A stretch of 22,942 nt of DNA from Fidelibacterota bacterium (GCA_046861395.1 JBHHUC010000032.1:1-22942); one strand, 5' to 3'; shown: positions 2,946 through 21,551, counted from the first letter of the stretch. A program made the numbers and translations. The notes: generated by a model from the sequence alone, not told the origin.

Positions 2946-2961
2946 TGTCCGGTGTCGGACA
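2946..2961 (+). promoter_or_regulatory. Crp/Fnr-family (CooA-box-like) site TGTCC-GGTGTC-GGACA upstream of the selenoprotein gene
   Basis: Perfect 5-6-5 palindrome in an intergenic region. A -10-like TATGTT at 2984-2989 lies 22 nt downstream. The same motif occurs at three other intergenic sites. Confidence 0.75.
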
Positions 2962-3012
2962 ATTTCAATCCCCATTTTTCCTCTATGTTTACATGCAACG
3001 AAAGTCCATCCT

Positions 3013-5001
3013 ATGTCAAAGATCATCACGCTTACCATTCTTTCCCTTACGCTGCTCAGCGCGGAAAATCTTTCCCTGACCTACCGTGGTACGTTGAGCA
3101 ATCATGAATTGCTGGACGTCTATATTGACGGAAACTGGGCCTATGTTCCGGCCGGATTGGGCGGACTGAATATTGTCGATTTATCGGCACCAGGCAATCC
3201 CGAAGTCATTGGACAATATGACGCCGATGGCTGTGCCTGGGGCCGTCTCTATGCCTGGGCTACCCGGGGGACCTATGCCTATGGTACCGGCCGTGATTGC
3301 GGTATTCATATTGTCTCCGTATCACCGGAAGGCATTCCCACTTTCATGAACACCTACATTGATCAGTCGCGTGCCAGTGTACGTTATGAACATCCCGAAA
3401 CATCCAATGATCTCCTATTTGCTTCCCGACATCAGGACGGCGTGGAAATTCTTTCTCTCAGCGATCCAATTCATCCCTACCAGTTATCCGTCATCCCTAC
3501 GGGAAATGCCTGGGCCACCCTGGCCAGCGATTCCATCCTCTATATCGCCGACGGTGGTTACGGCATTGCAGTTGTCGATATCACCGACCCGGAAACACCC
3601 ATCATATTGTCCACTATGGAGACATCGGGAACGGCCAAGGATCTGGCGCTGGTAAATCAATCCTTATTTGTCGCCGTTGGTGCCTACGGTGTGGATATGA
3701 TCAACGTACAAAACCCGGCAACTCCAGAATTCATAGCCAATTACAATACAACCGGATACGCCTCCCGTGTCGCAGCCAATGACAGTCTGGTGGCTGTTTC
3801 CGATTGGGACGATGTGGAAGTTTTACGCCACGGAACATTCGGTTTGGCTCTGGCCGGTTATAAAAATACCGGCGGCCGCGTCATGGCAATTAATATGATT
3901 GGCGATCACATCATTTCTGCCGAATGGAATTTATTCTCTGTTTTCCGTTTTGAAAATCAAACCGGTGCAGATATGGATTTATCCGTACACAAACTATCCT
4001 TTCCCCGAACCGCCAGTCCGAGCACGTCCACTCTCCCCCTTCAGATGACCAATTCAGGCAATTCGGTATTGTCGATTGCCGGCTATCAAATCAGTAATTC
4101 GGACTTTAGTATTACCATCCCTCAATTATCGCTGAACCCGGGACAAAGTCAGGAAATTGCCGTGCATTATACGCCTCAGGGCGGTACCTGGTACGGAACG
4201 CTGACCTTTCACACCAACGATCCCGATGAAGAGACGGTGGATGTCCGCGTTACGGGTAATTTTCCCTATGGTCCCATGGTGGGAGATCCGGCTCCGGGAT
4301 TTTCTCTACCTCTGGTTAATGGAAACGGGTATATGGGGTTGGAGGATTTAGCCGGGCAGCCTGCTGTGATTGCCTTTTTTACAGGGTGGTGACCCGTGTG
4401 TGCTCCGGAGTTTTCGGATTTGGAAATATCAATTTGGCAGGAATATCAGGCGCAAGGTTTGCAGGTCATCGGCATTTCGAATGAGCCATTAACCGTAATT
4501 GAAAATTTTATCGAGGATCAGGGCGTGACTTTTCCCGTCCTGCGAGATAATCAAAATGTTTACAGCGCCTATAATATTCCCGGTGGTCCATCTCCCTATC
4601 CCCGTGATTTTATCATCGATGCCGACGGTGTTGTTCATCTGGCGAAAACCGAATATGATCCCGGAGAAATGATCAATGTTATTGAAACTTTGCTGGGGAA
4701 TACCGCTGCCAGTGAAGACAATGATGTTCTGCCCCAATCGTTTTCACTTTCGGTCTATCCCAATCCCTTTAACTTTGCCACCACCTTTCACGTTACTGTA
4801 GCCAGTTCCGGTTATATGACTCTCACAATCATGGACCTCCTTGGGAAGGTGGTGGCAATACCGTTTACCGGGAATCTTCCCGCCGGATCAAACCGGGTGG
4901 AGTGGAACACACGAAACCGGGGGTTGTCTTCCGGTGTTTACTTTGCAGTGCTTGAATCGGATCAGGCTATATGGTCAATAAAGTTTATCCTACTAAAATA
5001 A
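3013..5001 (+). CDS. Secreted multidomain selenoprotein: signal peptide, LVIVD repeats, Ig-like (ASH/choice-of-anchor D) domain, AhpC/TSA-TlpA redoxin with UxxC, T9SS-type C-terminal sorting domain (662 aa, Sec460)
   Basis: ORFs 3013-4392 and 4396-5001 share a frame and are separated by one TGA (4390-4392). Read-through gives VIAFFTGW-U-PVC-APE, the W-C-x-x-C active site of a redoxin whose N-part (VGDPAPGFSL) and C-part (VIGIS...FPVLRD...YPRDFIID) flank the TGA. A SECIS-like hairpin follows, and the protein ends in a VYPNPFN...SSGVYF...K domain. Confidence 0.9.
4404..4418 (+). other. Bacterial SECIS-like hairpin TCCGGA-GTT-TTCGGA
   Basis: 6-bp stem (one G-U pair) with a loop beginning GU. 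It starts after an 11-nt spacer following the in-frame TGA, which matches the known bacterial SECIS geometry. Confidence 0.75.
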
Positions 5002-5010
5002 TCGCACAGC

Positions 5011-5026
5011 TCTCCGACCGGGGAGA
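5011..5026. terminator. Short hairpin between convergent genes (possible weak terminator)
   Basis: TCTCC-GACCGG-GGAGA, only a 5-bp stem and no adjacent U-tract. Confidence 0.25.
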
Positions 5027-5044
5027 ACCCAAAGAATTTTTACT

Positions 5045-5923
5045 TTATTGCGGCATCCAGGTCAGATTCAGGGCAAGATTACTTTGCCGCATGTCCAATC
5101 CAGGAATGCCGGTGATGAGAGGTCCACGCAAGGTCAGGGTAAACACCATTTCATCATGGCGATAATCCAATCCGGCCGAACCGAACAGATACCACCCCTT
5201 TACCGAGGGGCGGTAATCGCGGCGAAACGATAATTGCAGGGAGGGAAATATCCGCTGCCGAACAAATCTCTGGTCACGCTGATAGATGGAAACCTGCATT
5301 ATGGTTTCATTGAAACGATAGGCGCTGCGCGATACAGGGACATCCAGAAGCCACTGCATTCCAAGAATATATTTGGTTTCCTGAAAACGCCAGCCGTCCA
5401 GTGCTATCCGATGCAGGGCCCTTCCATCGGTAGCCAGTCCGCTTGATTCAGTTTCCGGTGCCACCCGGGACTTCTCAGGTAGAATTACACCGTTTGTCAG
5501 GTGAAAATTTCCTCGTTTCCAGGCTGGAATCATGCTGCGGAGAAGAATAGCCACTTCACCGGCTTTCCAACGATTGTCTGCTCCTCGGGTCCAGGGAACT
5601 GCCAACGTCAGTTCGGCCGCCGGATGGGGACGCATCGTCATCGACAGGGACAGGATTTCCCGGAAATCGCGACGATTGACGGAAATAAAATTGATTTTCT
5701 TGGTATGGACGCGGACCTGATTATAGGTGACCGATAAAAAGAAATTTTGCTCCCCCGGAAGGATGGTTTGGCCGGAAATTGTCAGAGGTTGAAACGATCC
5801 GGTGTTGGCTGTAGTGGATAATTGATTCCCTCCCACGGAAGGTGGTGGTGTCATTCAAGCCGTGCACTGTGCCTGCAACCAACTCGAAGAAATCAGGATC
5901 AATCCGCATATTACCCGGATCAT
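5045..5923 (-). CDS. Putative exported / outer-membrane beta-barrel selenoprotein with N-terminal CxxU (292 aa, Sec23)
   Basis: The ATG at 5923 overlaps the nnrE stop (ATGA) and encodes a signal peptide MIRVICGLILISSSWLQA-QCTA. An in-frame TGA (5857-5855) then leads into the 269-aa ORF starting 5854. A SECIS-like hairpin follows. Downstream sequence has amphipathic beta strands and an aromatic residue near the C-terminus. Confidence 0.8.
5828..5842 (-). other. Bacterial SECIS-like hairpin CCTTCC-GTG-GGAGGG
   Basis: 6-bp stem (one U-G pair) with a loop beginning GU, 12 nt after the in-frame TGA. Same size and geometry as the 4404-4418 element. Confidence 0.7.
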
Positions 5924-6657
5924 GGCAATCTCAGGATTGGCCCTGGAGCAAAAAGACTTGGGCAGGAATGTCCGATGGCGGTTAAAATATCATCGGGGAC
6001 ACCAATATCAGCCAGAAAAAGTTGACCCGTCTTTACCCGGGCAGGCGGCGTAAGTAAACCTTTTTTGGGCAGGGCCAATGTCAGTGTGGCCTGGGCCGAA
6101 ATTACGTTTCCGGTTATGGCTCCTGCTGTGGTATCCAAACCAGTGGGAGCATCCAGGGCCAGGATAAATGCCGGCCTTCCCGACTTGACCCGGGGCAGAT
6201 ATTTGGCAACCGATCCCCGCACCGGTCCCTGCAGACCGTATCCGATCACGGCGTCCAATAAAAAGGATCGGGACAAAACATCTTCTTCAGGCAGTGACGG
6301 GAGACAGGTGACATTTTTCATTCGGCGCAGGGTCTGCCAACGTTCGGCGGGAACCGGTTTCAACCGGGCTGAATCTCCGATTAGATATGCCGAAACAAGA
6401 TAGCCACGATTTGCCAGATGACGCGCGGCGGTCATACCACCGCCGCCGTTATTGCCTGTCCCGGCACAGACGCAAATCGGTACAGTCTTATCATCAATGA
6501 GGATTTCGGTCAAATCCGCCAGGTTGCGTCCGGCCAGCTCCATCATCTGGGATAGACGAATACCGTACTCCTCCATCATTAAACGGTCGACTTCAACCAT
6601 TTCGGCGGTGGTAATGGCCGGGACTGGATTCCTACAAATAGGAAAAGAATATTTCAT
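5920..6657 (-). CDS. nnrE: Stand-alone NAD(P)H-hydrate epimerase (YjeF N-terminal domain)
   Basis: Motifs MMELAG, GTGNNGGGG, DAVIGYG, LALDAPTG, TLTLALPK and LADIGVP. Confidence 0.9.
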   Translation of the reverse strand: MKYSFPICRNPVPAITTAEMVEVDRLMMEEYGIRLSQMMELAGRNLADLTEILIDDKTVPICVCAGTGNNGGGGMTAARHLANRGYLVSAYLIGDSARLKPVPAERWQTLRRMKNVTCLPSLPEEDVLSRSFLLDAVIGYGLQGPVRGSVAKYLPRVKSGRPAFILALDAPTGLDTTAGAITGNVISAQATLTLALPKKGLLTPPARVKTGQLFLADIGVPDDILTAIGHSCPSLFAPGPILRLP

Positions 6658-6689
6658 GTTTCAATTTACAGTGAAGGGACCCAATTCAG

Positions 6690-6705
6690 TGTCAGGCGCC
6701 GGACA
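6690..6705 (-). promoter_or_regulatory. Crp/Fnr-family site (plus strand TGTCA-GGCGCC-GGACA) upstream of nnrE and the CxxU gene
   Basis: Intergenic 5-6-5 palindrome. A -10-like TAAATT at 6668-6663 lies 21 nt downstream on the minus strand. Confidence 0.75.
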
Positions 6706-6720
6706 GCATTTTCGACCCGG

Positions 6721-7425
6721 TTACCAAGGAATGGGTTGGCGATCGCGGAAAAATTGCCCGTTGGGTCCGTCGTCCGGTAAAGTTGCTAGCCATACGGCCG
6801 TGTCAGCACCTTGGGCCGGAGTCCGCGGCGCATTTTCACCACCCATATCAGTATGGACCCAGCCGGGGCACATGGAATTGATCAGAACGTTTTTCCCTTG
6901 AACTTCAGCCGCTAAGAATCGCGTTACGGCATTCAAAGCCGTCTTGGAGATACGATAACCCGGATAACCGGAGGACATTTCGGACAATTGCCCCATGCCG
7001 CTGGATAGATTGACAATACGACCGTAATTCCTATAAATCATTCCCGGCAGAAACATCTGACAGAGACGCAACGGTCCGTAGACATTGGCTTCCATGGTGA
7101 TACGAATCGTTTCTATCGACGCTTCGAGAGTTGAACCCGGCGGGTCCAGCAATACACCGGCATTGTTGACCAAGATGTCCAGCCGTCCTTCTTTTTCCAG
7201 CAATGTATCGCGGGCATCACTGATAATGGATTCATTGGTGACATCAAGATGGAGCAATTGTACCTGCACATCTCGTTCAGCCAGATTTGCAACAGCATCC
7301 ATGCCATTTTCCACATCCCGGACACCCATATAAACGCGGGTGCCACGTGTTGCCAACTGATAACAAATTTCATATCCGATTCCCCGATTACCACCGGTGA
7401 CCAGGGCAATGTTGCTTTCCGACAT
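6721..7425 (-). CDS. SDR family oxidoreductase (carbonyl-reductase-like)
   Basis: TGGNRGIG, NNAG, YRISK and CPGWVHTDMG motifs. Start moved to ATG 7425, which follows AGGAGG. Confidence 0.9.
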   Translation of the reverse strand: MSESNIALVTGGNRGIGYEICYQLATRGTRVYMGVRDVENGMDAVANLAERDVQVQLLHLDVTNESIISDARDTLLEKEGRLDILVNNAGVLLDPPGSTLEASIETIRITMEANVYGPLRLCQMFLPGMIYRNYGRIVNLSSGMGQLSEMSSGYPGYRISKTALNAVTRFLAAEVQGKNVLINSMCPGWVHTDMGGENAPRTPAQGADTAVWLATLPDDGPNGQFFRDRQPIPW

Positions 7426-7596
7426 CCTTTTCCTCCTAAACCGACCCGTTTTGTAGAGATAAAATTCATAAATAATGTCCATTAAGACCAGTTATTTATT
7501 GGTTTTATGGTTTTTCGATATATTTCGTAAGCGCTCACGATGGTTTTCCCTGAGCTTTGTTCCCGGGACTGACCGGCATTCATTTCAATCGCATGA

Positions 7597-8511
7597 TCAG
7601 GGAAAGCGAATCGCTGTCCCCACCGAGATTCTCAGTCGTGGTTCGCTGCCCGGTGGGATATTACCGGAACTGGACTGAGTATAGACTGGAATCTTGATTG
7701 CCACACCGCCATCCCGGAATTGATTCCGTTTAAATAACAGGTTTATCTTTGCGTATATCGTGGTAATCCAACGGTCTCCTGACGGAATATCTAGGAAGGT
7801 ATCCGGTGTTTTTAAATGCCGAATATCCAGAGCAAGACCCGGTTTTATATACACCATACGGTTCAGATCGTACCTGCCCCCCAGTTCGGCACTCAGTGAT
7901 TCATCATAAACAACATCTCTCACCTCCCTGACATTCTGCTGCCAGGCCAATGCCAACGATAGTTGATGCAGTCCGGTGAAGCGGGTTATCCCGACCGGAA
8001 GTAAGATGGATCGGTTCACAGCCAGTGCTACCATGGCAGTACTCGGTGTTTTGAACGGAAATCCCTGACGGGAATAGTGACGGTGCTCTGTTGCTTTGTA
8101 TTGTATTTCGACTATCATACCATTGAACCAATGCCGGTAGCCCAACCGCAAACCGCTGGCAGTGATGTCGGTTGACCATTGTTCAAAGGAAATTCTTTCC
8201 TCGATTTGGGTACGGTTTACGCCGGCTTGAACAAAGAACACGGAAGTGGGACGGAAAGAGCGGGACCATTCCAGAAATAGATTTCCGGTTGTTCCGTACC
8301 GTATCGAGCTCCCTCCGTTTCCCGTCTGATCACCCTGGATTCCCACCATAATCTGATCCTTGTGGGCTAGCCCTAGGGGTGAAGGACGATGCCACAGGGA
8401 TGTTAGGGTCGCATTTCCTGTCCCACTAGTCGTTGATCCGTTTAAGGAACAACATAGTTGTGCCGTTCCCATCTGCAGGAATAGCGGAAATAATACCAGC
8501 GCACGAATCAT
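7597..8511 (-). CDS. Putative outer-membrane beta-barrel ('transporter'-like) protein with N-terminal Cys pair
   Basis: Signal peptide MIRALVLFPLFLQMGTA-QLCC, amphipathic strands, and C-terminal ...IRFP. ATGA overlap with the upstream gene. Confidence 0.65.
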   Translation of the reverse strand: MIRALVLFPLFLQMGTAQLCCSLNGSTTSGTGNATLTSLWHRPSPLGLAHKDQIMVGIQGDQTGNGGSSIRYGTTGNLFLEWSRSFRPTSVFFVQAGVNRTQIEERISFEQWSTDITASGLRLGYRHWFNGMIVEIQYKATEHRHYSRQGFPFKTPSTAMVALAVNRSILLPVGITRFTGLHQLSLALAWQQNVREVRDVVYDESLSAELGGRYDLNRMVYIKPGLALDIRHLKTPDTFLDIPSGDRWITTIYAKINLLFKRNQFRDGGVAIKIPVYTQSSSGNIPPGSEPRLRISVGTAIRFP

Positions 8512-9542
8512 GGGTTAAGCCGGATATCAGGATAAAAGGCCGCCGCGGCAAACCAGTAGGCAATAAAGGCATCAGCGGCGATAAGGTTTTCCCCACCATT
8601 GTGACTGACTCCCAGGGCATCCCAGGACAATTCTGAATTCCTCTCCTTCAGGCGGATTGTGCCGGCGATTGTATCCCATTGATCGATCAATAAATCACGG
8701 GTGGTCTGGAATGCGATGGCCAGATTATCTGCCGCGGATATGATTATACGATAGCTCACACCGCCGATTTCTTTTTCCACCAGGGTGGGCATGACAGAAT
8801 TCCTGATGGGAAAAGCCCATTGTTCTGTTTCAGTTGCAATCGTTAATACCCGTTCTTTGGCCGGAAGGCGGTCATCGAAATGAATCAGGGAAAAATAAAT
8901 GTAGTCTCCGCAAGAAGCTGAGTTACAGGTTTTATAATTCCCATAGGGATAAGAACCGTAATTGCGACTGTATCCGGTTTCCGTGGTGAGAACTTTTGAA
9001 TCGGGATACAATTTGCGCCAAGTTGCCCAGGTGGTTTCCAGCAGTGGTTTTAATTCCAGGGTCCTGCCACGTTTCGTCCCGGCCGCCGAAGCCAGGAGTA
9101 ATTGGGGCCAATAGCTTTCAGTACCGCGATCATACATGATCAGGTTGCTGTTATACAACATTCCCGAAACACCGAATTCTCCTTCTGTAACGGCATGAAG
9201 GGCCGATCCGGTTAGGGGGCAGTAGGAAATCATGTAGCCGGACTCATTTACCACTTCATGCCAATCCAGGATCGGGTGGGGATAGGCCACATATTCACTG
9301 CCGTTATACATCCCCACCACCAGATCACTCTCCTGCAGATAGGTATGAGCGGGGTCCGTAGTGATAGCATAGTGGGGATTGTCGATACTGGGAATACAAT
9401 CACGGCCGGCGTAACATCCCTGTTGCACGAATTCTGTATCAATGTCCCATTGTTCCTGATTCAGATTTCCTCCCAGAATATTGTCCTCCTGACAGGATAT
9501 CAGGACCAGCAACAGAATCAAAACCGAACGCTGCATAGGCAT
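8508..9542 (-). CDS. DUF3179 family lipoprotein
   Basis: Lipobox LLVLIS-C, plus family motifs DCIPSIDNP, AYPHPILDWHEVVN, SYCPLTGS, FGVSGMLYNSNLIMYDRGTESYWPQ and YWFA...FYP. Confidence 0.85.
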   Translation of the reverse strand: MPMQRSVLILLLVLISCQEDNILGGNLNQEQWDIDTEFVQQGCYAGRDCIPSIDNPHYAITTDPAHTYLQESDLVVGMYNGSEYVAYPHPILDWHEVVNESGYMISYCPLTGSALHAVTEGEFGVSGMLYNSNLIMYDRGTESYWPQLLLASAAGTKRGRTLELKPLLETTWATWRKLYPDSKVLTTETGYSRNYGSYPYGNYKTCNSASCGDYIYFSLIHFDDRLPAKERVLTIATETEQWAFPIRNSVMPTLVEKEIGGVSYRIIISAADNLAIAFQTTRDLLIDQWDTIAGTIRLKERNSELSWDALGVSHNGGENLIAADAFIAYWFAAAAFYPDIRLNP

Positions 9543-9581
9543 CCTCTTTTTCTGAAGTTACATCGTTCTGACGCTATTCGG

Positions 9582-9597
9582 TGTCCAGCAGCTGACA
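9582..9597 (-). promoter_or_regulatory. Crp/Fnr-family site (plus strand TGTCC-AGCAGC-TGACA) upstream of the DUF3179 operon
   Basis: Intergenic 5-6-5 palindrome. A -10-like TAACTT at 9560-9555 lies 21 nt downstream on the minus strand. Confidence 0.75.
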
Positions 9598-9774
9598 CTT
9601 CAGACAATCGTATTCATTTTGCTAACTATAATAATGTTATTGTTTTATTACTACATTATTCATCGTAGTTTTTCATGTTATTATCAGGAAGGAATTTGCT
9701 ACTTACTTCTCTCTTTTGAGTCGCTGTGTTCAACTCCTGTCTGATATTCTATCCAATTGATTTCAGGAGACACA

Positions 9775-10276: not shown

Positions 10277-11368
10277 TTATAATTCTTCCCGCAATCGTTT
10301 GCGTCGCCGGGAATCGATAGTATCCACGGCCCGTACGGCATATTCCTGGGCCGTATAAATTTGTTTCATCACCGGTTCCGTTCGGCGCTTGGTGGCATCG
10401 CCGACAACAAAAAAGCCCCTGACGGACGTTTCGCCCTTATGATCGATATAGATGTGGCGTTTTTCCACCGCTTCCTGTTCATCGGCCAGCTCGGTGCCAA
10501 CCTTGATCGCCAGATCATTATAGACCCGATACAGCCCCAGGGAAACCAAGGCAAACCTGACCATAACATCCTCATGCCGGTCAAAAGTAAATCCCCGGAG
10601 TTGTTTTACACCGTCACTGATGATATTGGTAATCTGATCCGGGACGATTTCAATTTCATAGGCCTGTAGGATGTGTCGGCGCTTCGATGAAATCCCAAGT
10701 GGCAACCCATTGCCCAGTATAACCACCCGGATACCATATCGTTCGTGCAGCATCATAGCTAGTTCGGCCGCCGTATTACTGTTTCCCAGCACGGCAACCG
10801 CATCCTGTTTTGTCAGATGTCCCTCACAGCGAATACAATAGAGTACCTGTTCCCGGTTGGCAAAAGGATATATCCATTTTTCACTGGCTAAGGGCGCACC
10901 AGTTCTGTCGGGTTTCAGAATAACTGGTTGTTCGTCCATCACGCCGGTACACAGAACCACTGATTCTGCTTTTTTTTCTGTGCCAACGGAAGAAAGAGTA
11001 AAAACGCCGTCCGATAAATTCAAGTCGGTGACCGATTCTGAAATAATGTCCACGGCGGGATAATCCGCCCGGATGCGGTCTATGGTATTCTGGATGATCA
11101 TGCGGTTATTGATATGAAAATGTTGTCCCGCCAGGGACTCTGCTGCTTCATGAAACTTGTTTTTCCGCAGTACGGCCAGGACCTGATTTTTTACAATATC
11201 ATCGTGGAGACCAATCATATTGTCAATATTGGCAACCCATTGGGAGCGACTCCGTTTCCGTGTTCGTTTATCACCCAGAAACCATACCGTATCCAGCCCG
11301 TTTTGTGCCGCCCGCAGGGCAGTGGCGGAACCGGCGATCCCTCCGCCAATAACAGCAACATGCTTCAT
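10277..11368 (-). CDS. Thioredoxin-reductase-like NAD(P)/FAD-dependent oxidoreductase
   Basis: GGGIAG dinucleotide fold, YCIRCEGH CxxC, and ETSVRGFFVVGD. ATGA overlap with the upstream gene. Confidence 0.8.
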   Translation of the reverse strand: MKHVAVIGGGIAGSATALRAAQNGLDTVWFLGDKRTRKRSRSQWVANIDNMIGLHDDIVKNQVLAVLRKNKFHEAAESLAGQHFHINNRMIIQNTIDRIRADYPAVDIISESVTDLNLSDGVFTLSSVGTEKKAESVVLCTGVMDEQPVILKPDRTGAPLASEKWIYPFANREQVLYCIRCEGHLTKQDAVAVLGNSNTAAELAMMLHERYGIRVVILGNGLPLGISSKRRHILQAYEIEIVPDQITNIISDGVKQLRGFTFDRHEDVMVRFALVSLGLYRVYNDLAIKVGTELADEQEAVEKRHIYIDHKGETSVRGFFVVGDATKRRTEPVMKQIYTAQEYAVRAVDTIDSRRRKRLREEL

Positions 11369-13258: not shown

Positions 13259-13263
13259 ACCTG

Positions 13264-14112
13264 CTAGGAATTCAGGACCTTGTAAATGGTTCTATTTTCT
13301 TCCGAAAGGTCGGATACCGGCGTCAGCAGTGCTCCGGCCAGACTGGTCCGACAGGAGCAGGATTTAGTCAGTAGGGGTCGGGACAACAGGGTGGACAACA
13401 TGGCTTTTACTTTGGCTACACTGGCACTGTACCATTCGAATATCTTCTCAACCGATACGTGTAAATCAGGATCTTCCAGCCAACAGTCATAATCCGTAAT
13501 AATGGTTAAAGTAGCGTAACACATTTGGGCTTCACGGGCCAGAAAAACTTCCGGTACATTGGTCATTCCCACCAGATCGGCTTTGACGGCATGCTTCAGA
13601 AAATGGCTTTCCGCCTTTGTCCCCAAACGGGGACCTTCCACACAAGCGTACGTCTTGCCGCTGTGTATTGTATGTCCCTTTTCTGATCCTACGTCGATAA
13701 GAACCTGTGTCAGGTTCGGACACGTGGGTTCAGCGGTGCTCACATGAGCAGCCATGCCCTGACCGAAAAATGTTTTACGGCGTTGACCGGCCGTATGATC
13801 GAAATATTGATTCGGAACAGCGAATTCTCCCGGTTTCAGTTCCAGTTGTAAACTCCCCACCGCCGAGAGTCCGATAATCCGGGTTACTCCTGCTTGTTTC
13901 AGTGCAAAAATATTAGCCCTGTAATTCACTTCATGGGGTAGGAATTGGTGCCGCTCCCCATGTCGTGGCAGGAAAATCACATCCTGGTTCCCCACGCGGC
14001 CTTTCATCAGCGGCCCGGACGGCTCGCCGAAAGGGGTCGCAGGACGTAATTCTTCCAGAAGGGTCAACCCTTCCAGTTGATAAATACCGGTTCCACCAAT
14101 AATGCCTATCAT
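13264..14112 (-). CDS. mtnP: S-methyl-5'-thioadenosine phosphorylase family nucleoside phosphorylase
   Basis: IGIIGGTG, TPFGEPS, FLPRHG, NYRANI, SAVGSL, EGPR, VGMTNVPE..LARE and TDYDCW motifs. GAGG RBS. Confidence 0.9.
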   Translation of the reverse strand: MIGIIGGTGIYQLEGLTLLEELRPATPFGEPSGPLMKGRVGNQDVIFLPRHGERHQFLPHEVNYRANIFALKQAGVTRIIGLSAVGSLQLELKPGEFAVPNQYFDHTAGQRRKTFFGQGMAAHVSTAEPTCPNLTQVLIDVGSEKGHTIHSGKTYACVEGPRLGTKAESHFLKHAVKADLVGMTNVPEVFLAREAQMCYATLTIITDYDCWLEDPDLHVSVEKIFEWYSASVAKVKAMLSTLLSRPLLTKSCSCRTSLAGALLTPVSDLSEENRTIYKVLNS

Positions 14113-14124
14113 ATTGTCCTCACT

Positions 14125-15807
14125 TCAGGTCACGATTTGTTCAAATTTTCGCCGCAAATGGTCCGGACGGTTACGCCATTTCTCTTGGACGATGAAGATT
14201 CCCATCTGCCACCAGCCGAGAGACGAGAAAAAATGTTTACGGTAATTGCCGGTACCACGAAATCCGCCTTTCCGACGGAATAAACGTAAACGAAATTTTG
14301 ACTTGGGTAAATGATTTTTTCCTGCAATAATATCACGAAATACAAAGGGAATCCAATCGGTGCGGGCATATACTTTTTTTATTTTTTCAATCGCCGGTTC
14401 AATTGCTTTCTCATCATCCCCCACTGCATCCAGAATAGCATATATTTCATCCGAGAGACGGTCAAAATCCGGCCATAATCCTCCCACCAGTTTCAGATCA
14501 CGAATTTCTTCCAGATAGCCTTCCCGTGAGCCTCCGGACAGATAACGGAACCGGGCAGTACTCAATTTTAATCCTTCCAGGTAGGCGCCCAACAACCATA
14601 ATACGGAATATAAATGCCACAACTGATAATCGACAAATGATTTGTAGGCATAGGCAATCAGACGGTCATTCGCCCGAATAATGTTTTTCGTCTTGGTCTC
14701 AACCCAGGTAAAGTCCGAACGCTGAAACCGATTTTCGGCATGAGATGTCAGAAGCTGTTGCGCCAGTGCCCCCACACAACTCAAGGATGCATACAGTCCC
14801 TTGGAAAATAACGGATCAATAAATCCGGCCGAATGACCCAGGAGAGCAAATCGGTCACCCACTACCTGCGTGGACGAATACTGAATCCGGTCCGTCCGCA
14901 CCCAGTCCCGCACCGCAATACCATCCTTCATTTGCGCATAGATTGAGGGAAATCGTTTCAAGATGGAAAAGAATTCCTCCTCCGCCGTTCGAGATTCATC
15001 CCGGGGATATAGGCGAGGATCGAGCATGAGACCGACACTACAAAAAGGATTCACCGCCCGTTGGTGGTTGTTGAACGGAATGACCCAGAGCCAGCCGCCG
15101 TGAAATAAATGATGTAGCGTGCCTTCCGAAAAAGAATAGGGCAAACGCAAAGCTCCTTTCCTGCCGGAGATGTCATGGTAAGACGGAATCCTGATCAGAT
15201 GCGAAAAAATACTGCGGGAATGGGTCAATAAATTTGTGTCCCGCAGATCGTACTTTCGAGCCAGCAGGGAATGATAGCCACAGGCATCTACCAGGAACCG
15301 GGATGCAATGACCGCTCCGGAAGCCGTCTGCAATGTGACACCGGAGGCATCCATATCCACCGCCGTCACCTTCGTGTTCTGCAGGACGGTAGCTCCATAT
15401 TTACGGGCTACCGCGAGATAATAAAAATCGGAATCCTGTCGATAAATGTGAAGTTCATGTCCGTACGGCTCTTGCGGGATCACGGCCTGCAGAATTTCCT
15501 GCGGATTTGCCGATTTACTCTGTCGGTGGTAGGTAAAACTGAAATGGCGCTTTACCCCGTGACTGTATCCAATAACCGGGAAGAAATTCTCGGAACTGAA
15601 ATGGGCAATTTCCGGTACATCAAACAACAGGGCCAGGCCCCGCATGATTTCAGACGTTTCGATAATTTGCGATTCCCCGATGGCAAAACGGGGATGAGAC
15701 TTTGCCTCCACCACCAGAACCGACAATCCCTGTCGTGCCAGGATGGACGCCAGTATGGTACCGGCAATCCCGGAACCAATAATGGTTACATCGGATTTAT
15801 AATTCAC
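14125..15807 (-). CDS. Flavin-dependent halogenase, PrnC-like
   Basis: GSGIAG, HPRFAIGES, GVKRHF (Lys86 at the catalytic-Lys position), EGTLHH, GGWLWVIPFNNH, SVGL.LDPR.YP and GFIDPLFSKG motifs. Collinear with PrnC as recalled from memory. Confidence 0.88.
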   Translation of the reverse strand: MNYKSDVTIIGSGIAGTILASILARQGLSVLVVEAKSHPRFAIGESQIIETSEIMRGLALLFDVPEIAHFSSENFFPVIGYSHGVKRHFSFTYHRQSKSANPQEILQAVIPQEPYGHELHIYRQDSDFYYLAVARKYGATVLQNTKVTAVDMDASGVTLQTASGAVIASRFLVDACGYHSLLARKYDLRDTNLLTHSRSIFSHLIRIPSYHDISGRKGALRLPYSFSEGTLHHLFHGGWLWVIPFNNHQRAVNPFCSVGLMLDPRLYPRDESRTAEEEFFSILKRFPSIYAQMKDGIAVRDWVRTDRIQYSSTQVVGDRFALLGHSAGFIDPLFSKGLYASLSCVGALAQQLLTSHAENRFQRSDFTWVETKTKNIIRANDRLIAYAYKSFVDYQLWHLYSVLWLLGAYLEGLKLSTARFRYLSGGSREGYLEEIRDLKLVGGLWPDFDRLSDEIYAILDAVGDDEKAIEPAIEKIKKVYARTDWIPFVFRDIIAGKNHLPKSKFRLRLFRRKGGFRGTGNYRKHFFSSLGWWQMGIFIVQEKWRNRPDHLRRKFEQIVT

Positions 15808-15819
15808 ATCGCGTCCAGC

Positions 15820-16872
15820 TCAGCAACATGCCCCCAGGGATTTTTCTTTGTCAGCATTGGAGAGACTATCACCGCAATCAAAGGGACCGTAATGTATGTC
15901 AAAGTTTCCTTTGACATCAAAATAATTCCGGTACCGGGTTTCACTGAGCATCTTGGCTGTATTGCCGCATACCAGTACAGGTTTCCCCGTCGGAAATCGG
16001 TGATGATCGTCCAGCTTGAATTCATGCGGATTTTCGTGGAGCGTTCCTTTATAATAGGCCACGTGACCATAATCTTCACAGAGGTCTTCCAGGTCCAGTT
16101 TGAAAGCCCGGATCGTCATGGAATAGAATTGGATCATACCGGCCTTGGCAAAGACTTCCTCATCCTCCAAGGCAATATTGGATGTGGACACGATACGATA
16201 ATCCAGACAGTTCTGCCGCCGGAGCATGCGTCGGAAATCTTCAATATACATGGCGCCACCAAGACATTCCCCCAGGAGAACATCGTCTTGCCGTAAGTCT
16301 GCCGGAATGCGACGATCGGAGAAGACATCACTGAAGAACAATTCGCCCCCCGGTTTCAGTACCCTGAATATTTCCCTGAATACCGCTTCCTTCTCGGGAG
16401 ACAGGTTGATTACGCAATTGGAAATCACCACATCAATGGATTCATCCTCCATATCGATCGATTGCAGATCTTCGATGTAACCGTGTTTGAATTCCACATT
16501 AGGGAAAGGATAATGAAATTTAGTCATGTGAAAATCAATATGCCGTCGGGCTACGTCCAATTGCTCTTCGGTCATGTCAACTCCGATTACCTTCCCCATG
16601 GGTCCAACCATCTGAGACAATAGATAACAGTCCCGGCCGGTTCCGCAACCCAGATCCAAAACCGTTTTCCCTTCCAGAGCAATGGGTATCGGTGAACCGC
16701 AGCCATAAAACTTATCCAGAATCTCAGGATGAATATTTTTCAGATATGCCTTGATGTAGGGTGGCATATCATCGGGAATACAGCAGGCACTGGTTTTAAG
16801 GTCATGTTTCGTACTTAGCACCTCACTGTAATAGTTTTTAACACTGACTTTTACTTTATCATTCGGGGTCAT
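15820..16872 (-). CDS. arsM: Arsenite S-adenosylmethionine methyltransferase (ArsM/AS3MT-like)
   Basis: LKTSACC, FYGCGSP, VLDLGCGTGRD, VISNCVINL, GECLGGA, VCGNTA and C-terminal CC. GGAGGA RBS. Confidence 0.88.
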   Translation of the reverse strand: MTPNDKVKVSVKNYYSEVLSTKHDLKTSACCIPDDMPPYIKAYLKNIHPEILDKFYGCGSPIPIALEGKTVLDLGCGTGRDCYLLSQMVGPMGKVIGVDMTEEQLDVARRHIDFHMTKFHYPFPNVEFKHGYIEDLQSIDMEDESIDVVISNCVINLSPEKEAVFREIFRVLKPGGELFFSDVFSDRRIPADLRQDDVLLGECLGGAMYIEDFRRMLRRQNCLDYRIVSTSNIALEDEEVFAKAGMIQFYSMTIRAFKLDLEDLCEDYGHVAYYKGTLHENPHEFKLDDHHRFPTGKPVLVCGNTAKMLSETRYRNYFDVKGNFDIHYGPFDCGDSLSNADKEKSLGACC

Positions 16873-16881
16873 GGTTCCTCC

Positions 16882-17898
16882 TCAAACTTGTAGATCGGTC
16901 GCTAGGGGTTCAAAAGTTTGTTGCTGTTTAATTTGTTTATCCAACACACCGGTGCAAGAGCTTCCGGCCCCGGCCGTACAGCCGAAACAATGGTCCTCAA
17001 ATACAATGGGCTGGTGTATCATGTCCGAAAAGGTATCTATATCCCAAACGGAACGGGCTGAATGACCTGCTGGCAATTCCAGCATCTGATTGAAATCACA
17101 ATCATATAAATACCCGTCCCAACTGATGGATACCAGATCACGGCACATGATACCATCCGCTGCTATGGGATTGAAATTTGACCGGAGCAGTTCCATATAT
17201 TCTTCCAGTCGGTTCTCTCGCTCCAGATAACGGGCAAAGCGATGTATGGGCATATTGGTAATGGTAAACAACGTGTTGAATGTAATGCCGAAATCCTGCT
17301 GCAATATTCGTTTATAATCCCGTTCCAACTGATGTTGGGCCGGTGGCAATGATGGTCCTATGGGATTATAAACCAAGTCCAGTTGCAAACCGGAATTGGG
17401 TTTTCCGTATCCCAGCGAATTCAGCTTCAACAATGCTTCAATACTTTTCCCGAAAACACCTTTCCCCCGTTGCTTTTCCACATTTTCCCGGGAATAACAT
17501 GGCAGGGAACTCACAATCTGAACCTGGTGTTCGGCCATGAATTCCGCCGTATCCTCCTGTCCTGCTTCATACAGTACGGTGAGATTGCAACGGTCAATCA
17601 CCTGAAGCCCCTGCTTTACAGCGGTGCTGACCAACGTGCGGAAAGAAGGATTCAATTCTGGTGCCCCACCGGTCAGATCCACGGTTTCCAGCGACGGTGA
17701 TTGCGTCATGAGTGTAATGATCCGGTTCACGGTCTTTTCGTCCATATTCTCCGTTCGGTTCGGACCGGCATCCACGTGACAGTGCAGACATGCCTGGTTG
17801 CAAAGTTTTCCCAGATTGATCTGGAGAGTCGTGACTGCTTTGCGTTTCAGGTTCAGGTGATAATGGTTTATGGTTTCTTGAAATGATGTTTTTTTCAT
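16882..17898 (-). CDS. arsS: Arsenosugar biosynthesis radical SAM protein ArsS (TIGR04167-type, Cys-rich C-terminus)
   Basis: TLQINLGKLCNQACLHCHVDAGP (CxxxCxxC), DLTGGAPELN, SLPCY, TITNMPI, YDCDFNQML and HCFGCTAGAGSSC motifs. Confidence 0.92.
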   Translation of the reverse strand: MKKTSFQETINHYHLNLKRKAVTTLQINLGKLCNQACLHCHVDAGPNRTENMDEKTVNRIITLMTQSPSLETVDLTGGAPELNPSFRTLVSTAVKQGLQVIDRCNLTVLYEAGQEDTAEFMAEHQVQIVSSLPCYSRENVEKQRGKGVFGKSIEALLKLNSLGYGKPNSGLQLDLVYNPIGPSLPPAQHQLERDYKRILQQDFGITFNTLFTITNMPIHRFARYLERENRLEEYMELLRSNFNPIAADGIMCRDLVSISWDGYLYDCDFNQMLELPAGHSARSVWDIDTFSDMIHQPIVFEDHCFGCTAGAGSSCTGVLDKQIKQQQTFEPLATDLQV

Positions 17899-20033
17899 GA
17901 ACGTCTCCAGGAATGAAATTTATCCAGCCACTTGAGAGCTCCGGAGGGAGCGTGGGCTTTTTTCCAGTTACCGGCGGCAAACTTCGTGGCTTCACTCAGG
18001 GTTGGGTAAGTGTGAATCGTACCCAGGATTTTATTGAGTCCAAGACCGTATTTCATCGCCAGTACATATTCGGCCATGATTTCTCCGGCATGGGGCCCCA
18101 CTATGGTAGTGCCCAAGATTTTATCTTTGTTGGGAACGGTCAGGACCTTTACAAATCCGCGGTTTTCACCGTCGGCAATGGCACGGTCCAGCCCGGCAAA
18201 ATCATATGTGGTCACTTCATAGGGAATATCTTCCCGTTGCGCATCTTTCTCATTCAATCCCACGCGAGCCACTTCCGGATCGGTAAAGGTGGTCCAGGGA
18301 ATGATGCGATAATCGGCTTTGAACTTTTTCAGGGGGCTGAACAGAGCGTTAATGCTCACATACCAGGCCTGATGGGAAGCAAAATGTGTGAACTGGTATG
18401 GTCCGGTAACATCACCGCAAGCATAGATATTGGGATAATTTGTACGCAGAAATGGATCCACATCGATGGTCCCGTTGGGTCGCAATTCTACTCCCAGTTC
18501 TTCCAGTCCGAATCCAGTCACATTGGCCCGGCGTCCCAATGCAAGCAGAATTTCATCACAGTGAATACGGATTTCCTTTCCTTCATGTTCGCATACGACG
18601 ATTTTTTCATCGCCGTCCCGTTCGAATCGTTTGACCATGTGTCCTGTTTTTACGGTGACACCTTCCTGTTCGAACGTTTCCCGGATGAATGCACTCACAT
18701 CGTCATCTTCCCGGTTCAGAATGCCGTCATAACCTTCCACCTGAGTCACGGCACTGCCGAAACGGGCGAAAGCCTGCGTCATTTCACTGCCGATAGGACC
18801 GCCCCCCACTACCACCAGCCGTTTGGGCAGGGTACGAATATCCCAGATGGTATCGCTGGTCAACGGACTGACTTCTTCCAAGCCAGGAATAGGTGGTGCC
18901 AACGGCCGGCTGCCGGTAGCAATCACGATGTTCCTGGTTGTCAATGTATTGCCGTTCACTTCTACCGTGAAAGGATCAATGATTCGGGCTTCCCCGATCA
19001 TGGCGTCCACTCCTAAACTTTGATAGCGTTCTACGGAATCATGAGGTTCAATGTATTTAATGACACTCTGCACCCGTTCCATGACATGGGCAAAGTCGAA
19101 ATCGACGGTCGTGGAACGAAATCCCCAATCGGTAGCCCGGTGGGCATGATGGAGCATCTTGGCGGAGCGCAGCAATGTTTTACTGGGAACACAACCCGTA
19201 TTTAGGCAGTCACCACCCATTTTCGTTTTTTCGATCACGGCAACCTTGGCTTTGAGAACAGCGGCAATATATGCGGCTACCAATCCACCGGATCCGGCCC
19301 CGATCACAATGATATTGTAATCAAAGTGTCGTGGTTTTTTCGTATTTTTATAGATTTTCCTGGCCCTTACAACTGCTACGATACTCTTTGCAATCCATGG
19401 GAATAGTCCCAACAGGGCAAAGGATAAGAGAACGTCCGGGGATATTATGCCGGAGGCCGATTCCAGTTGGGCCAGTTGTGTTCCCGCATTCACGTAAACG
19501 GCTGTTCCGGCCAGCATTCCCAATTGACTGACCCCGTAGAAGGTCCGTGCCGGTATGGGTGTAAGTCCGAATATCAGATTTATCATAAAGAAGGGGAAAA
19601 TGGGGATTAGACGCAATGTAAATAAATAGAAACCGCCATCCTTTTTAATCCCTTCATTAATGACCTGAAGTTTCTTACCGAAGCGGGACTGGACCGGTTC
19701 ACGAAACAGATACCGGGCGACCAGAAATGCCAGTGTTGCGCCAATGGAACTGGCAAAGGAAATCAGGATTACAGCTGGGAAAAAGCCGAAAATGGCGCCG
19801 CCGGCCAGAGTCAGAATGACGGCTCCGGGAAGGGAAATGGCTGTAGCAAAAACGTAAAGGGCAAAATACCCGGCCATCATGGTAAACTGATGCTCCTGGT
19901 AATAGGCCTGGATTTGTGTCTGTTGCCGTTTTAATTCGGTAAAATTTAAATACTGTCCAATATCAAAATATTGATATACAGCCACGGCACCAAAGAATAG
20001 GGCCATAAATGTTAACACTTTTTTTATGTTCAT
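17895..20033 (-). CDS. TVP38/TMEM64 (DedA/SNARE-associated) membrane domain fused to a class-I pyridine nucleotide-disulfide oxidoreductase
   Basis: N-terminal SLPGA.ILTLAGGAIFG and LRLIPIFPF. C-terminal GAGSGG, GGDCLNTGCVPSK, GGGPIG.E, TFTDPEVA and HTYPTLSE. No MerA C-terminal CC. Confidence 0.9.
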   Translation of the reverse strand: MNIKKVLTFMALFFGAVAVYQYFDIGQYLNFTELKRQQTQIQAYYQEHQFTMMAGYFALYVFATAISLPGAVILTLAGGAIFGFFPAVILISFASSIGATLAFLVARYLFREPVQSRFGKKLQVINEGIKKDGGFYLFTLRLIPIFPFFMINLIFGLTPIPARTFYGVSQLGMLAGTAVYVNAGTQLAQLESASGIISPDVLLSFALLGLFPWIAKSIVAVVRARKIYKNTKKPRHFDYNIIVIGAGSGGLVAAYIAAVLKAKVAVIEKTKMGGDCLNTGCVPSKTLLRSAKMLHHAHRATDWGFRSTTVDFDFAHVMERVQSVIKYIEPHDSVERYQSLGVDAMIGEARIIDPFTVEVNGNTLTTRNIVIATGSRPLAPPIPGLEEVSPLTSDTIWDIRTLPKRLVVVGGGPIGSEMTQAFARFGSAVTQVEGYDGILNREDDDVSAFIRETFEQEGVTVKTGHMVKRFERDGDEKIVVCEHEGKEIRIHCDEILLALGRRANVTGFGLEELGVELRPNGTIDVDPFLRTNYPNIYACGDVTGPYQFTHFASHQAWYVSINALFSPLKKFKADYRIIPWTTFTDPEVARVGLNEKDAQREDIPYEVTTYDFAGLDRAIADGENRGFVKVLTVPNKDKILGTTIVGPHAGEIMAEYVLAMKYGLGLNKILGTIHTYPTLSEATKFAAGNWKKAHAPSGALKWLDKFHSWRRS

Positions 20034-20054
20034 TATTTTATTCCTGTTATAAAT

Positions 20055-20741
20055 CTACCGTGGCAAGACGGCGATGTAATCGATAAAAGCAATGGCGGAT
20101 TCGCCGGTATTATCCGAATCGGACATGATGGCCAGGCTGGCAGTGGCAGGCGGATCCTCGCCAAAAGCAGCCCGGTAATCCCGCAATATATCTACTTCCT
20201 CTTCCTGCCAAGTACCAACTGCTGCGGGACCTTCCCGGAGAACAATCATCTGAGCCTGGTTGGTATAGGCATTGGGAATGATCCCTTTTTCATGGGAACG
20301 ATTGGCCCAGATATAATTCAGGCTGGAATGGGGCGGGTATTCACCATAAACGAGGCGGGCCGCTTCATATTTGAGCGCCTGGGCCCAGCCGGCCTCGTCG
20401 GGGTCATACTGAAAAACAATATAGATCCGGACCGGGTAATCATCACCATCTTTGAAGCGGGCATCCCCTTTTGTAAAGACATTGCTGACCATCCAGCGCC
20501 ACCTGATGACCGGCATTTCATAGACATTGAAAGTTTCAGAAAAAATGACTCCGGATGCCGAAGCCCGTGCTTCAGCCTTCAGGACTGACACCGTATCTCT
20601 TTTTTCTATAGAATAGTAGGTATGGTTTTCAATATTCGGAAACGTCAACGGTTTCCAATGATCCAGCGACGAAAAATCTTCTACGATGGGTTCCGTCCCC
20701 CACAGGACAGAAAAAGCATAAACGAATAAAAATTGTTTCAT
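20055..20741 (-). CDS. DUF3047 family exported protein
   Basis: Signal-like N-terminus plus WRW, K.GDDYP.RIYI.F, LNYIWA, DYRAAFG and IMSDSDNT motifs. Confidence 0.85.
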   Translation of the reverse strand: MKQFLFVYAFSVLWGTEPIVEDFSSLDHWKPLTFPNIENHTYYSIEKRDTVSVLKAEARASASGVIFSETFNVYEMPVIRWRWMVSNVFTKGDARFKDGDDYPVRIYIVFQYDPDEAGWAQALKYEAARLVYGEYPPHSSLNYIWANRSHEKGIIPNAYTNQAQMIVLREGPAAVGTWQEEEVDILRDYRAAFGEDPPATASLAIMSDSDNTGESAIAFIDYIAVLPR

Positions 20742-20749
20742 AATACCTC

Positions 20750-20776
20750 AAAAGAGGGGAAACAGGATGTTTCCCC
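20750..20776 (-). terminator. Intrinsic terminator-like hairpin after doxX
   Basis: Minus strand GGGGAAACA-TCC-TGTTTCCCC (perfect 9-bp stem) followed by TCTTTT, directly ahead of the GAGG RBS of the DUF3047 gene. Confidence 0.65.
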
Positions 20777-20794
20777 CCGCATTTACAGTGCTGA

Positions 20795-21199
20795 TTATTC
20801 TTCACCATTTCCTTTGATGAAAAAGGTCAAACCGGTTAAGAGGATTAGCATTTGAAATTCCATACCACCCATGTTATTGGTTCCTTCGCCCCAACCGGCG
20901 GCAAAACTCCAGCCATTGGGCAGATGAACCATCATGATGGCACCCAGCATGACGACAGCCATGATACCACCGGCGACTCTGGTGGCCCAATCCGGTCCCG
21001 CACCGCCCCATAATATGAGCAGACCGGCAACTACTTCAGCGGTGGCCAGCATGTAAATTATTGCAATGGGCATTCCCATCATGTTGGCCATCATACCGGC
21101 CATGGGGAATTTCCCAAATCCATGATACAGAAATGTTACGGCCAGGGTTGCACGTACTAACCAATGTGCATTGGGGGCCAGTTTTTTTAGAAAATCCAT
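20795..21199 (-). CDS. DoxX family membrane protein
   Basis: R..LA..F..HG..K, AE...G, GAI.MVH..NGW and GGMEFQ motifs. Start moved to ATG 21199 after AAGGAG. Confidence 0.88.
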   Translation of the reverse strand: MDFLKKLAPNAHWLVRATLAVTFLYHGFGKFPMAGMMANMMGMPIAIIYMLATAEVVAGLLILWGGAGPDWATRVAGGIMAVVMLGAIMMVHLPNGWSFAAGWGEGTNNMGGMEFQMLILLTGLTFFIKGNGEE

Positions 21200-21213
21200 A
21201 ATAACTCCTTCAT

Positions 21214-21495
21214 TCAATTCGTGTAAGTCAAGACACGGAACTTTTGCCGGAAGCGACGAATATCGAATCCGCCTAAAAACCACAACCGTTCGTTCACCCA
21301 TACGGCCGGTGTTATAAACGGCGTACGGTTGCCCGGATATGTTTTGGCCGTGTCGGCATCAATGATCTCCAAGACAATATTTGGAAAATCAAAGGCTTCG
21401 GCTTCCAGTTCAGACTGAACCTTATCGCACATCCGGCAAGGATGGCGAACGACCAGTTGAACTTTGTATTGTCTCCGCTGTTTCTCGTGTTTCAT
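21214..21495 (-). CDS. Small glutaredoxin/thioredoxin-fold protein
   Basis: 93 aa with CRMC followed by a helix and a TPAVWVN cis-Pro motif. Confidence 0.75.
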   Translation of the reverse strand: MKHEKQRRQYKVQLVVRHPCRMCDKVQSELEAEAFDFPNIVLEIIDADTAKTYPGNRTPFITPAVWVNERLWFLGGFDIRRFRQKFRVLTYTN

Positions 21496-21532
21496 ACGGA
21501 GGTGAAGGTAAGGGAAGAACTATGGGGCGTAC

Positions 21533-21548
21533 TGTCCTTTGGCTGACA
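21533..21548 (-). promoter_or_regulatory. Crp/Fnr-family site (minus strand TGTCA-GCCAAA-GGACA) upstream of grx-doxX
   Basis: Sits 3 nt after the regulator's stop codon. A -10-like TACCTT at 21510-21505 lies 22 nt downstream. Confidence 0.75.
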
Positions 21549-21551
21549 CAG

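Follow-up and report, generated by a model that had tools for sequence, protein, structure and literature searches.

A conserved TGTC-N8-GACA palindrome beside a Crp/Fnr-family regulator gene in Marinimicrobia: a probable class II operator before redoxin, selenoprotein and metalloid genes

Introduction

A 22,942-bp contig of Fidelibacterota bacterium GCA_046861395.1 (JBHHUC010000032.1:1-22942; contig C65 of genome G000, which comprises 2.37 Mb in 136 contigs) carries the same 16-bp palindrome in four intergenic gaps together with a gene for a Crp/Fnr-family regulator, raising the question of whether these palindromes, hereafter boxes, are the operators through which that regulator acts on the genes beside them. 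The window analyzed here is this entire contig; the DNA runs that bear it are all labelled hydrothermal vent metagenome, and no RNA run was listed for positions 20000-22942. Marinimicrobia (SAR406, Fidelibacterota; also Neomarinimicrobiota) are abundant in the dark ocean, oxygen-minimum zones and vents, with almost no genetics. Neither this regulon, nor this operator in Marinimicrobia, nor any regulator of arsenosugar genes is described in the literature searched, which included the main texts of PMC8510549 and PMC3590769.

A first-pass annotation of this DNA had proposed a four-site regulon in which the boxes, each at a fixed distance from a -10-like hexamer, tie selenocysteine (U) protein genes, a DUF3179 operon and an arsenic (ars) cluster to the local regulator. 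Here we describe the site with its spacing, show how far it is conserved, and document that it is linked to the regulator gene. From these sequence comparisons we consider it quite probable that the TGTC-N8-GACA palindromes are operators of the regulator encoded at 21552..22232, acting as a class II activator.

Results

Four boxes with a fixed spacing to a -10-like hexamer

Searching the window with TGTC(A/C)-N6-(T/G)GACA returned four exact matches, and the looser pattern TGTC-N8-GACA returned the same four only. Shuffled sequences contained on average 0.07 strict and 0.42 loose matches, and at least four copies occurred in 0 of 100 shuffles. All four boxes lie between open reading frames (ORFs), and each is followed, toward the downstream gene, by a TAnnTT hexamer at an offset of 22, 21, 21 and 22 nt, respectively, so that both the palindromes and the spacing proposed in the first-pass annotation were recovered. 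The distance from hexamer to start codon is 23, 5, 12 and 9 nt at boxes 1-4, and the half-sites and the hexamer are all that the four sites have in common. The sites are as follows.

2946..2961, no strand assigned: box 1, TGTCCGGTGTCGGACA, a pattern match; the L101 ortholog of the downstream gene also has a box on its upstream side
2984..2989, + strand: -10-like hexamer TATGTT; 22 nt separate it from box 1 upstream and 23 nt from the ATG at 3013 downstream
6690..6705, no strand assigned: box 2, TGTCAGGCGCCGGACA, a pattern match
6663..6668, - strand: -10-like hexamer TAAATT; 21 nt separate it from box 2 upstream and 5 nt from the ATG at 6657 downstream
9582..9597, no strand assigned: box 3, TGTCCAGCAGCTGACA, a pattern match
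9555..9560, - strand: -10-like hexamer TAACTT; 21 nt separate it from box 3 upstream and 12 nt from the ATG at 9542 downstream
21533..21548, no strand assigned: box 4, TGTCCTTTGGCTGACA, 3 nt past the regulator stop codon, the core site of the regulon
21505..21510, - strand: -10-like hexamer TACCTT; 22 nt separate it from box 4 upstream and 9 nt from the ATG at 21495 downstream

A scan for sigma-70-type promoters found none at the four window sites, and promoter-like counts equalled those of shuffled sequence (30 vs 29.0). On the other side of box 3 (9598-9760), a perfect TATAAT stands 29 nt from the box, a spacing unfit for class II activation, and precedes a divergent SlyD/FKBP-type gene (9757-10239); an FKBP gene also adjoins the grx-doxX genes in L067 and L068.

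The box accompanies the regulator gene in relatives

Of 40 related genomes, 14 contain an ortholog of the regulator (64-83% identity), and one box lies just past the regulator stop codon at all 14 ortholog loci as well as at a second copy in G002, while no box was found at five paralog loci (~30% identity). In a separate scan of named metagenome-assembled genomes across Marinimicrobia, an exact box was present within 140 nt after the regulator gene at 44 of 46 orthologous loci (54-83% identity), against an expectation of ~0.1; the box after the regulator in L107 has one mismatch, and L110, which encodes a 44%-identical Bacteroidia protein, has no box within 140 nt after the gene. Among the 44 loci, TAnnnT follows the box at an offset of 21-22 nt in 41 and of 23 nt in two, and is absent from one. 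The N8 spacers differ from locus to locus, the half-sites alone being conserved. Across the phylum, an ortholog occurs in 73 of 301 sampled genomes and in 32 of 104 genera.

The gene that follows the box encodes a CxxC thioredoxin-fold (grx-like) protein in 15 of 15 relatives' loci, and the gene beyond it encodes DoxX or, in another clade, an MTAP-like protein. In that clade (L091, L094-L100, L102-L104, L106, L112) the order is regulator, box, grx-like and MTAP-like gene, with no DoxX, and NnrE follows the MTAP-like gene in L091, L094 and L106. The MTAP-like phosphorylase is found in the first operon even where ArsS was not seen.

These data bear on whether the boxes are protein sites at all, rather than chance palindromes, a terminator hairpin, a TTGACA-like -35 box or the ends of mobile elements, a set of explanations that we regard as extremely improbable. 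Although two of the four window boxes come after a stop codon, GACA is similar to the last bases of TTGACA, and an identical box sequence lies at contig ends in G008 and G012 in the manner of insertion-sequence termini, the shuffles speak against chance. As a hairpin the box would have a 4-bp stem, an 8-nt non-complementary loop and no T-run; as a -35 box it would stand 21-22 nt from the -10, too far when 16-18 nt are needed; and the combination of conserved half-sites with varying spacers across 44 loci, like the sharing of half-sites and hexamer alone by the window sites, fits none of them. The terminator-hairpin, -35-box and mobile-element readings were thus rejected on shuffles, hairpin shape, spacing and half-site conservation. 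In G008 and G012, TGTCTATGG(T/G)AAGACA recurs ~35 nt from many contig ends, like an insertion-sequence terminal repeat, and the box counts of these two genomes are therefore inflated.

The composite motif is in excess where the regulator is present

We compared the composite motif, box-N21-22-hexamer, with a reversed control in genomes with and without the regulator. For TAnnTT, 15 regulator-bearing genomes contained 40 matches vs 11 in the control, whereas 26 genomes without the regulator contained 17 vs 20; for TAnnnT the corresponding counts were 86 vs 35 and 46 vs 65. One genome, G020, was first scored as lacking the regulator in the whole-genome protein search because a 2,448-bp contig ends within its regulator gene (L159, contig C185); the C-terminus reads RQTVNTIL... 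and the grx promoter is present. Moving G020 to the regulator-bearing group gave 93 vs 41 there and 39 vs 59 in the others (TAnnnT), and an excess persisted when the 17 regulator-adjacent sites were dropped (76 vs 41).

Adjacency alone is no proof of the binder, since the grx-like gene is always the regulator's neighbor, and the boxes might travel with the grx operon and belong to another DNA-binding protein, either an unrelated factor or the one further full-length protein of Crp type that the genome encodes (C36:3371-4021, recognition residues R-E-T-V-S-R). We judge this highly unlikely. The composite motif rises above control only where the R-Q regulator is present, whereas the paralog is found in nearly all relatives; the paralog's R-E...R residues predict TGTGA half-sites, and it is accordingly predicted to read TGTGA-type sites (TGTG-N8-CACA has ten matches in the genome, two of them intergenic); and a 16-bp two-fold symmetric site at -41.5 is a signature of the Crp/Fnr family. 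The proposed tie between boxes and local regulator is thus supported by adjacency at 44 of 46 ortholog loci and none of five paralog loci, by the composite excess, by the invariance of R-Q-T and by the pairing of Gln181 with C described below; the conservation of the box in relatives (14/14 and 44/46 loci) likewise agrees with the first-pass annotation.

Boxes outside the contig

Genome-wide, TGTC-N8-GACA occurs 20 times, and four of these copies fall in the window, which is 1% of the genome. By our ORF map, eight of the 20 boxes are wholly non-coding in a genome with 6.9% non-coding DNA (binomial P = 3e-5), whereas controls with swapped halves gave 1 intergenic match in 18 and 2 in 29; this is the intergenic enrichment that the regulon proposal had led one to expect. 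TAnnnT at an offset of 21-22 nt follows seven of the 20, namely the four window sites and those at C1:9463, C59:19148 and C73:16206. At C1:9463, a terminator-like hairpin is followed by the box and by a second redoxin with W-U-I-T-C that is secreted by the type IX secretion system (T9SS). At C73:16206, the box lies between a merT-merA-thioredoxin-DsbD_TM cluster and a gene for an exported protein with U-P-L-U in frame; this locus (C73:15182-20548, L157) comprises merT-HMA, merA, thioredoxin_3 and DsbD_TM genes. At C109:7206 a box with one mismatch (its last bases being GATA) and with TAAAAT at 21 nt stands before a gene for a twin-arginine translocation (Tat)-signal lipoprotein with repeated HxH motifs, and the G020 ortholog of this lipoprotein (L040) has a perfect box upstream; a profile search, run on L040 only, gave no Pfam family match. 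The regulon therefore does not stop at four sites and ~20 kb of one contig, as had been supposed: judging from these promoters, it probably also includes the second secreted UxxC selenoprotein, the UxxU outer-membrane barrel and the His-rich lipoprotein.

The site at C59:19148 differs in position: an exact box with TAATTT at 21 nt lies where an M14 carboxypeptidase gene encodes its T9SS tail, with a C25 peptidase gene 99 nt further on, and recurs with variable spacers in G001, G002 and G003.

Promoter architecture

A logo built from 88 composite sites showed no -35 hexamer and no extended -10; the -35 place reads CAGTTT-like, with 1/6 matches to TTGACA. At box position 5 the counts were A 35, T 23, G 20 and C 10, a weak preference for A. 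The TGTC-N8-GACA core of the box as first described is thus conserved, while the strict (A/C)...(T/G) rule at positions 5 and 12 was rejected, being only a weak preference across relatives. The ATG lies 4-10 nt after the hexamer in 49 of 88 sites, with a peak at 5 nt; given such short gaps, many of these mRNAs are predicted to be leaderless, and the 5-nt gap at box 2 predicts a leaderless mRNA from that promoter.

In Escherichia coli, class II CRP and FNR promoters have their site centered at -41.5. As a proxy for this centering, the box ends 21-22 nt before TAnnnT at 4/4 window sites and 41/44 orthologous loci, and two further traits of class II promoters, a two-fold symmetric 16-bp site and a weak or absent -35 hexamer, are present. 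Relative to the predicted start, the box center would be located near -41.5 or -42.5, from where the regulator would activate.

Several observations weigh against this assignment. The rank test for the co-occurrence (P ~4e-6) is descriptive only, as the relatives are not independent and P values overstate the difference. Total TGTC-N8-GACA counts per genome did not separate by regulator and equalled the reversed control; most copies are chance matches in coding DNA, which makes total counts uninformative, and the informative measures are the composite motif and intergenic position only. The ORF map behind the figure of eight non-coding boxes in 20 is crude, calling 93% of the genome coding. 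The site at C59:19148 is coding, and a conserved Leu-Ser...Arg-His/Gln peptide could explain its conservation. The 21-22 nt geometry is lacking at the intergenic boxes C11:13273 and C100:15524 and at C73:20195, an exact box ~95 nt upstream of merT with no TAnnnT at 21-22 nt and a TATGAT 43 nt away. No box lies upstream of the regulator gene in most loci, so autoregulation is not indicated. The box, finally, would cover about -49 to -34 from the predicted start, where repressors can act, and the regulator could instead sit over the -35 region and block RNA polymerase until an effector releases it. We consider such repression unlikely. Promoters without a -35 hexamer or extended -10 look activator-dependent, and the 21-22 nt phasing kept in 41 of 44 loci is needed for a polymerase contact on one face of the helix, not for simple occlusion. 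Repressor sites of Crp/Fnr proteins, moreover, as a rule overlap the start site or the -10 hexamer.

A regulator with a CooA-like recognition helix

The regulator favored as the activator at these boxes is the following.

21552..22232, - strand: Crp/Fnr-family regulator of 226 aa, with the recognition helix TARQTVNAVL

Its N-terminal cyclic-nucleotide-binding-type beta-barrel matches PF00027 (82.3 bits, E 2.5e-23, cut-off 27.5) and its C-terminal Crp-type helix-turn-helix matches PF13545 (40 bits, E 3.9e-10, cut-off 27); a long inter-domain helix, of the kind through which this superfamily dimerizes, spans residues 122-147 in an AlphaFold2 monomer model (mean pLDDT 81; 59-63 at the helix). The nearest solved structures by sequence are GlxR of Corynebacterium and Mycobacterium tuberculosis CRP (PDB 4cyd, 4byy, 3d0s; E 6e-25), and no NCBIfam equivalog model was passed by the regulator, the best being LdrP at 73.5 bits against a cut-off of 300. 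The protein has R-Q at CRP positions 180/181 and Ala at 185. All 46 orthologs have the RQT noted in the first-pass annotation; at position 185 they carry Q, M, A, T, G, S, L or V, and neither R nor K occurs there.

Passages of PMC2677863 state that half-site bases are contacted by Arg180, Glu181 and Arg185 in CRP, and that an operator with C and G in place of G7 and A8 is activated by a CRP variant patterned after CooA (Gln181/Thr185); the CooA consensus is given as TGTCGGCnnGCCGACA in a passage of PMC545781. By analogy with CRP structures and the published mutants, the Arg at position 180 would read the G of TGTC; Gln181, where CRP has Glu, would select C rather than G as the fourth base, which matches CooA; and with no basic residue at position 185 the fifth base would be free.

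Cys107, the only cysteine in the regulator, is invariant, His94 is present in 96% of orthologs, and His182, Met24 and Met33 are nearly invariant. An FNR-type iron-sulfur cluster was ruled out as the sensor by the single Cys. In the cyclic AMP (cAMP) pocket, H-T-N aligns with the phosphate-binding R-T-S of GlxR; with His in place of the phosphate-binding Arg in 96% of orthologs, cAMP is an unlikely effector. Cys107, His94 and the conserved N-terminal 14 residues are candidate sensor elements, which would allow thiol modification, heme or a small ligand. Residues 1-14 (M-x-E-K-T-K-L-W-Y-L-x-N-F-N) are among the best-conserved parts across 41 aligned orthologs and recall the sensor roles of the CooA and FNR N-termini.

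Genes behind the boxes

The genes that follow the boxes in the window are listed below.

3013..5001, + strand: secreted selenoprotein with LVIVD repeats, an Ig-like domain, a thioredoxin-fold domain and a T9SS sorting tail, by read-through translation and domain hits
5920..6657, - strand: stand-alone NAD(P)HX epimerase (NnrE, YjeF_N); PF03853 1.1e-32, TIGR00197 104.4 bits vs cut-off 88.6
5045..5923, - strand: exported selenoprotein with C-T-A-U after the signal peptide, TGA at 5855-5857; no Pfam match
8508..9542, - strand: DUF3179 lipoprotein, PF11376 1e-67, Cys form (YCPLT)
7597..8511, - strand: exported protein with a Cys-Cys pair directly past the signal peptide, no Pfam match; overlaps the DUF3179 stop
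6721..7482, - strand: short-chain dehydrogenase (SDR) by domain match, after a 114 nt gap
21214..21495, - strand: the gene that opens the long operon, for a small 'Grx-like' protein with a thioredoxin fold and a CRMC motif
10277..21301, - strand: the other 11 genes of the putative operon, all on one strand and no more than 53 nt apart, with co-transcription predicted from this spacing

The selenoprotein at 3013..5001 has W-U-P-V-C in its thioredoxin-fold domain, with the TGA at 4390-4392. The nnrE stop overlaps the ATG of the exported selenoprotein (ATGA, 5920-5923), and plain ORF calling shortens this C-T-A-U protein. A table passage of PMC9312934 includes DUF3179 among families that have selenoproteins and assigns it a UxxC/T motif. 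The 7597..8511 product is the one that had been called a 'barrel', and the SDR gene is a possible last member of the DUF3179 operon. The Grx-like protein has weak Thioredoxin_3 and Glrx-like matches (E 0.001-0.005), and the 11 genes behind it encode DoxX, DUF3047, a VTT-MerA-like reductase, ArsS, an ArsM-like methyltransferase, an FAD oxidoreductase, an MTAP-like phosphorylase, TIGR04283-like and TIGR04282-like glycosyltransferases, a SelL-related redoxin and a TrxR-like protein. A terminator scan of this operon found no convincing terminator inside it. The ArsS radical SAM protein scores 448.9 bits against the cut-off of 300 for TIGR04167, one of the NCBIfam arsenosugar biosynthesis families; the best matches of other products, likewise to these families, stay below cut-off (AsSugarArsM 109 vs 400, TIGR04282 128.5 vs 134, TIGR04283 154.5 vs 182).

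The box follows several of these genes into relatives. DUF3179 orthologs occur in six of 40 relatives (G005, G012, G017, G020, G022, G031), all regulator-bearing once G020 is corrected and all with an upstream box, and a box lies upstream in seven of eight DUF3179 operons. A stand-alone 245-aa NnrE is found in 12 relatives, again all regulator-bearing, and the other genomes have only a ~520-aa bifunctional enzyme. Stand-alone nnrE lies directly behind a box in G002 and G003, behind a box and a periplasmic thioredoxin-like gene in G023 and G035, and within the grx operon in several genomes. Boxes also precede VTT-MerA-like genes in G014 and G035, genes for a UxxC redoxin and a SoxA/TsdA-type cytochrome c in G022, and a YceI-like gene in G002.

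ArsS was found in only two of 41 genomes (G000 and G003) and at one further locus, L113. This rarity argues against arsenosugar synthesis as the conserved purpose and makes the arsenosugar genes lineage-specific passengers of the grx operon, not core members. Of the targets first proposed, the selenoprotein genes, nnrE, DUF3179 and grx-doxX do stand behind boxes, and the ars genes are to be seen as local cargo. A gene-distribution link to selenium was rejected as well: selA scores above cut-off in 39 of 41 genomes irrespective of the regulator, and the regulon is therefore not tied to having the selenocysteine machinery.

The predicted regulon would thus comprise the grx-doxX-DUF3047-VTT/MerA-arsS-arsM operon, nnrE with the CxxU exported protein, DUF3179 with the Cys-pair exported protein, and the two T9SS-secreted UxxC redoxins, with several of the mRNAs leaderless or nearly so.

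Discussion

If the regulator is the activator at these boxes, what does it sense? The CxxC, UxxC, CxxU and UxxU motifs of the putative targets, together with the MerA-like and TrxR-like products, point to thiol/selenol chemistry or soft metal(loid)s. More tentatively, and with considerable doubt, we suggest that a Crp-family sensor without the cAMP-binding Arg, equipped with the invariant Cys107, the near-invariant His94 and a conserved N-terminal lid, may detect a thiophilic stress or its damage product and turn on a largely leaderless thiol/selenol defense of the SAR406 cell envelope. Candidate signals for such a network include As(III), Hg(II), reactive sulfur or selenium species and a heme-bound gas, as well as metabolites such as methylthioadenosine (MTA), 5'-deoxyadenosine and NAD(P)HX, the adenosine type. 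Candidate parts are the T9SS-secreted UxxC redoxins, outer-membrane proteins tipped with CxxU, UxxU or Cys-Cys, DUF3179, DoxX, DUF3047, the membrane-anchored MerA-like reductase and a dedicated NnrE. Were this so, the shared operator would be the first functional thread joining these uncharacterized families into one pathway.

The operator rule, TGTC-N8-GACA with TAnnnT 21-22 nt on, can be used to predict co-regulated genes in metagenomes, and it places DUF3179, DUF3047, DoxX, the VTT-MerA fusion, selenocysteine-tipped exported proteins and stand-alone NnrE in a testable grouping with selenoproteins and metal(loid) genes. The regulator would also be a natural example of the Gln181-to-C rule, one where residue 185 is not basic and the fifth base is free. 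No new kind of mechanism is involved, and the value of the finding lies in the annotation of an uncultured phylum.

Comparison with known systems

Porphyromonas gingivalis belongs to another phylum of the FCB group. Its heme/NO (nitric oxide)-sensing regulator HcpR has a single predicted site that also carries C and G at positions 7 and 8, according to a passage of PMC2677863. HcpR resembles the present regulator in being a local regulator adjoining its target; it differs in controlling hcp, no hcp gene having been seen behind a box here, and in having been modelled with Ala181/Arg185.

Full-length alignment and the same domain order link the protein to GlxR and M. tuberculosis CRP, whereas their R-E-T-V-N-K and R-T-S are replaced here by R-Q-T-V-N-A and H-T-N. 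It falls short of CRP proper (NF008732, 72.3 bits vs cut-off 266; no phosphate-binding Arg) and of FNR (61.9 bits vs cut-off 228; a single Cys). The predicted promoters resemble the class II promoters of E. coli in their 16-bp palindrome ending 21-22 nt before the -10 and in having no usable -35, but the half-site is TGTC, not TGTGA or TTGAT, and many start codons lie 4-10 nt past the hexamer.

The closest parallel in DNA recognition is CooA, the carbon monoxide (CO) sensor of Rhodospirillum rubrum and Desulfovibrio, which shares Arg-Gln at positions 180/181 and a 16-bp two-fold symmetric TGTC...GACA site. In contrast to CooA, the inner bases are free here and position 185 is variable, no CO dehydrogenase/hydrogenase (coo) gene lies behind any box examined, and similarity to CooA structures (E 1e-17 to 1e-12) is weaker than to GlxR or M. 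tuberculosis CRP. By the features tested, the regulator is neither CRP, FNR nor CooA, and is best described as a putative class II Crp/Fnr-like activator with a CooA-type half-site.

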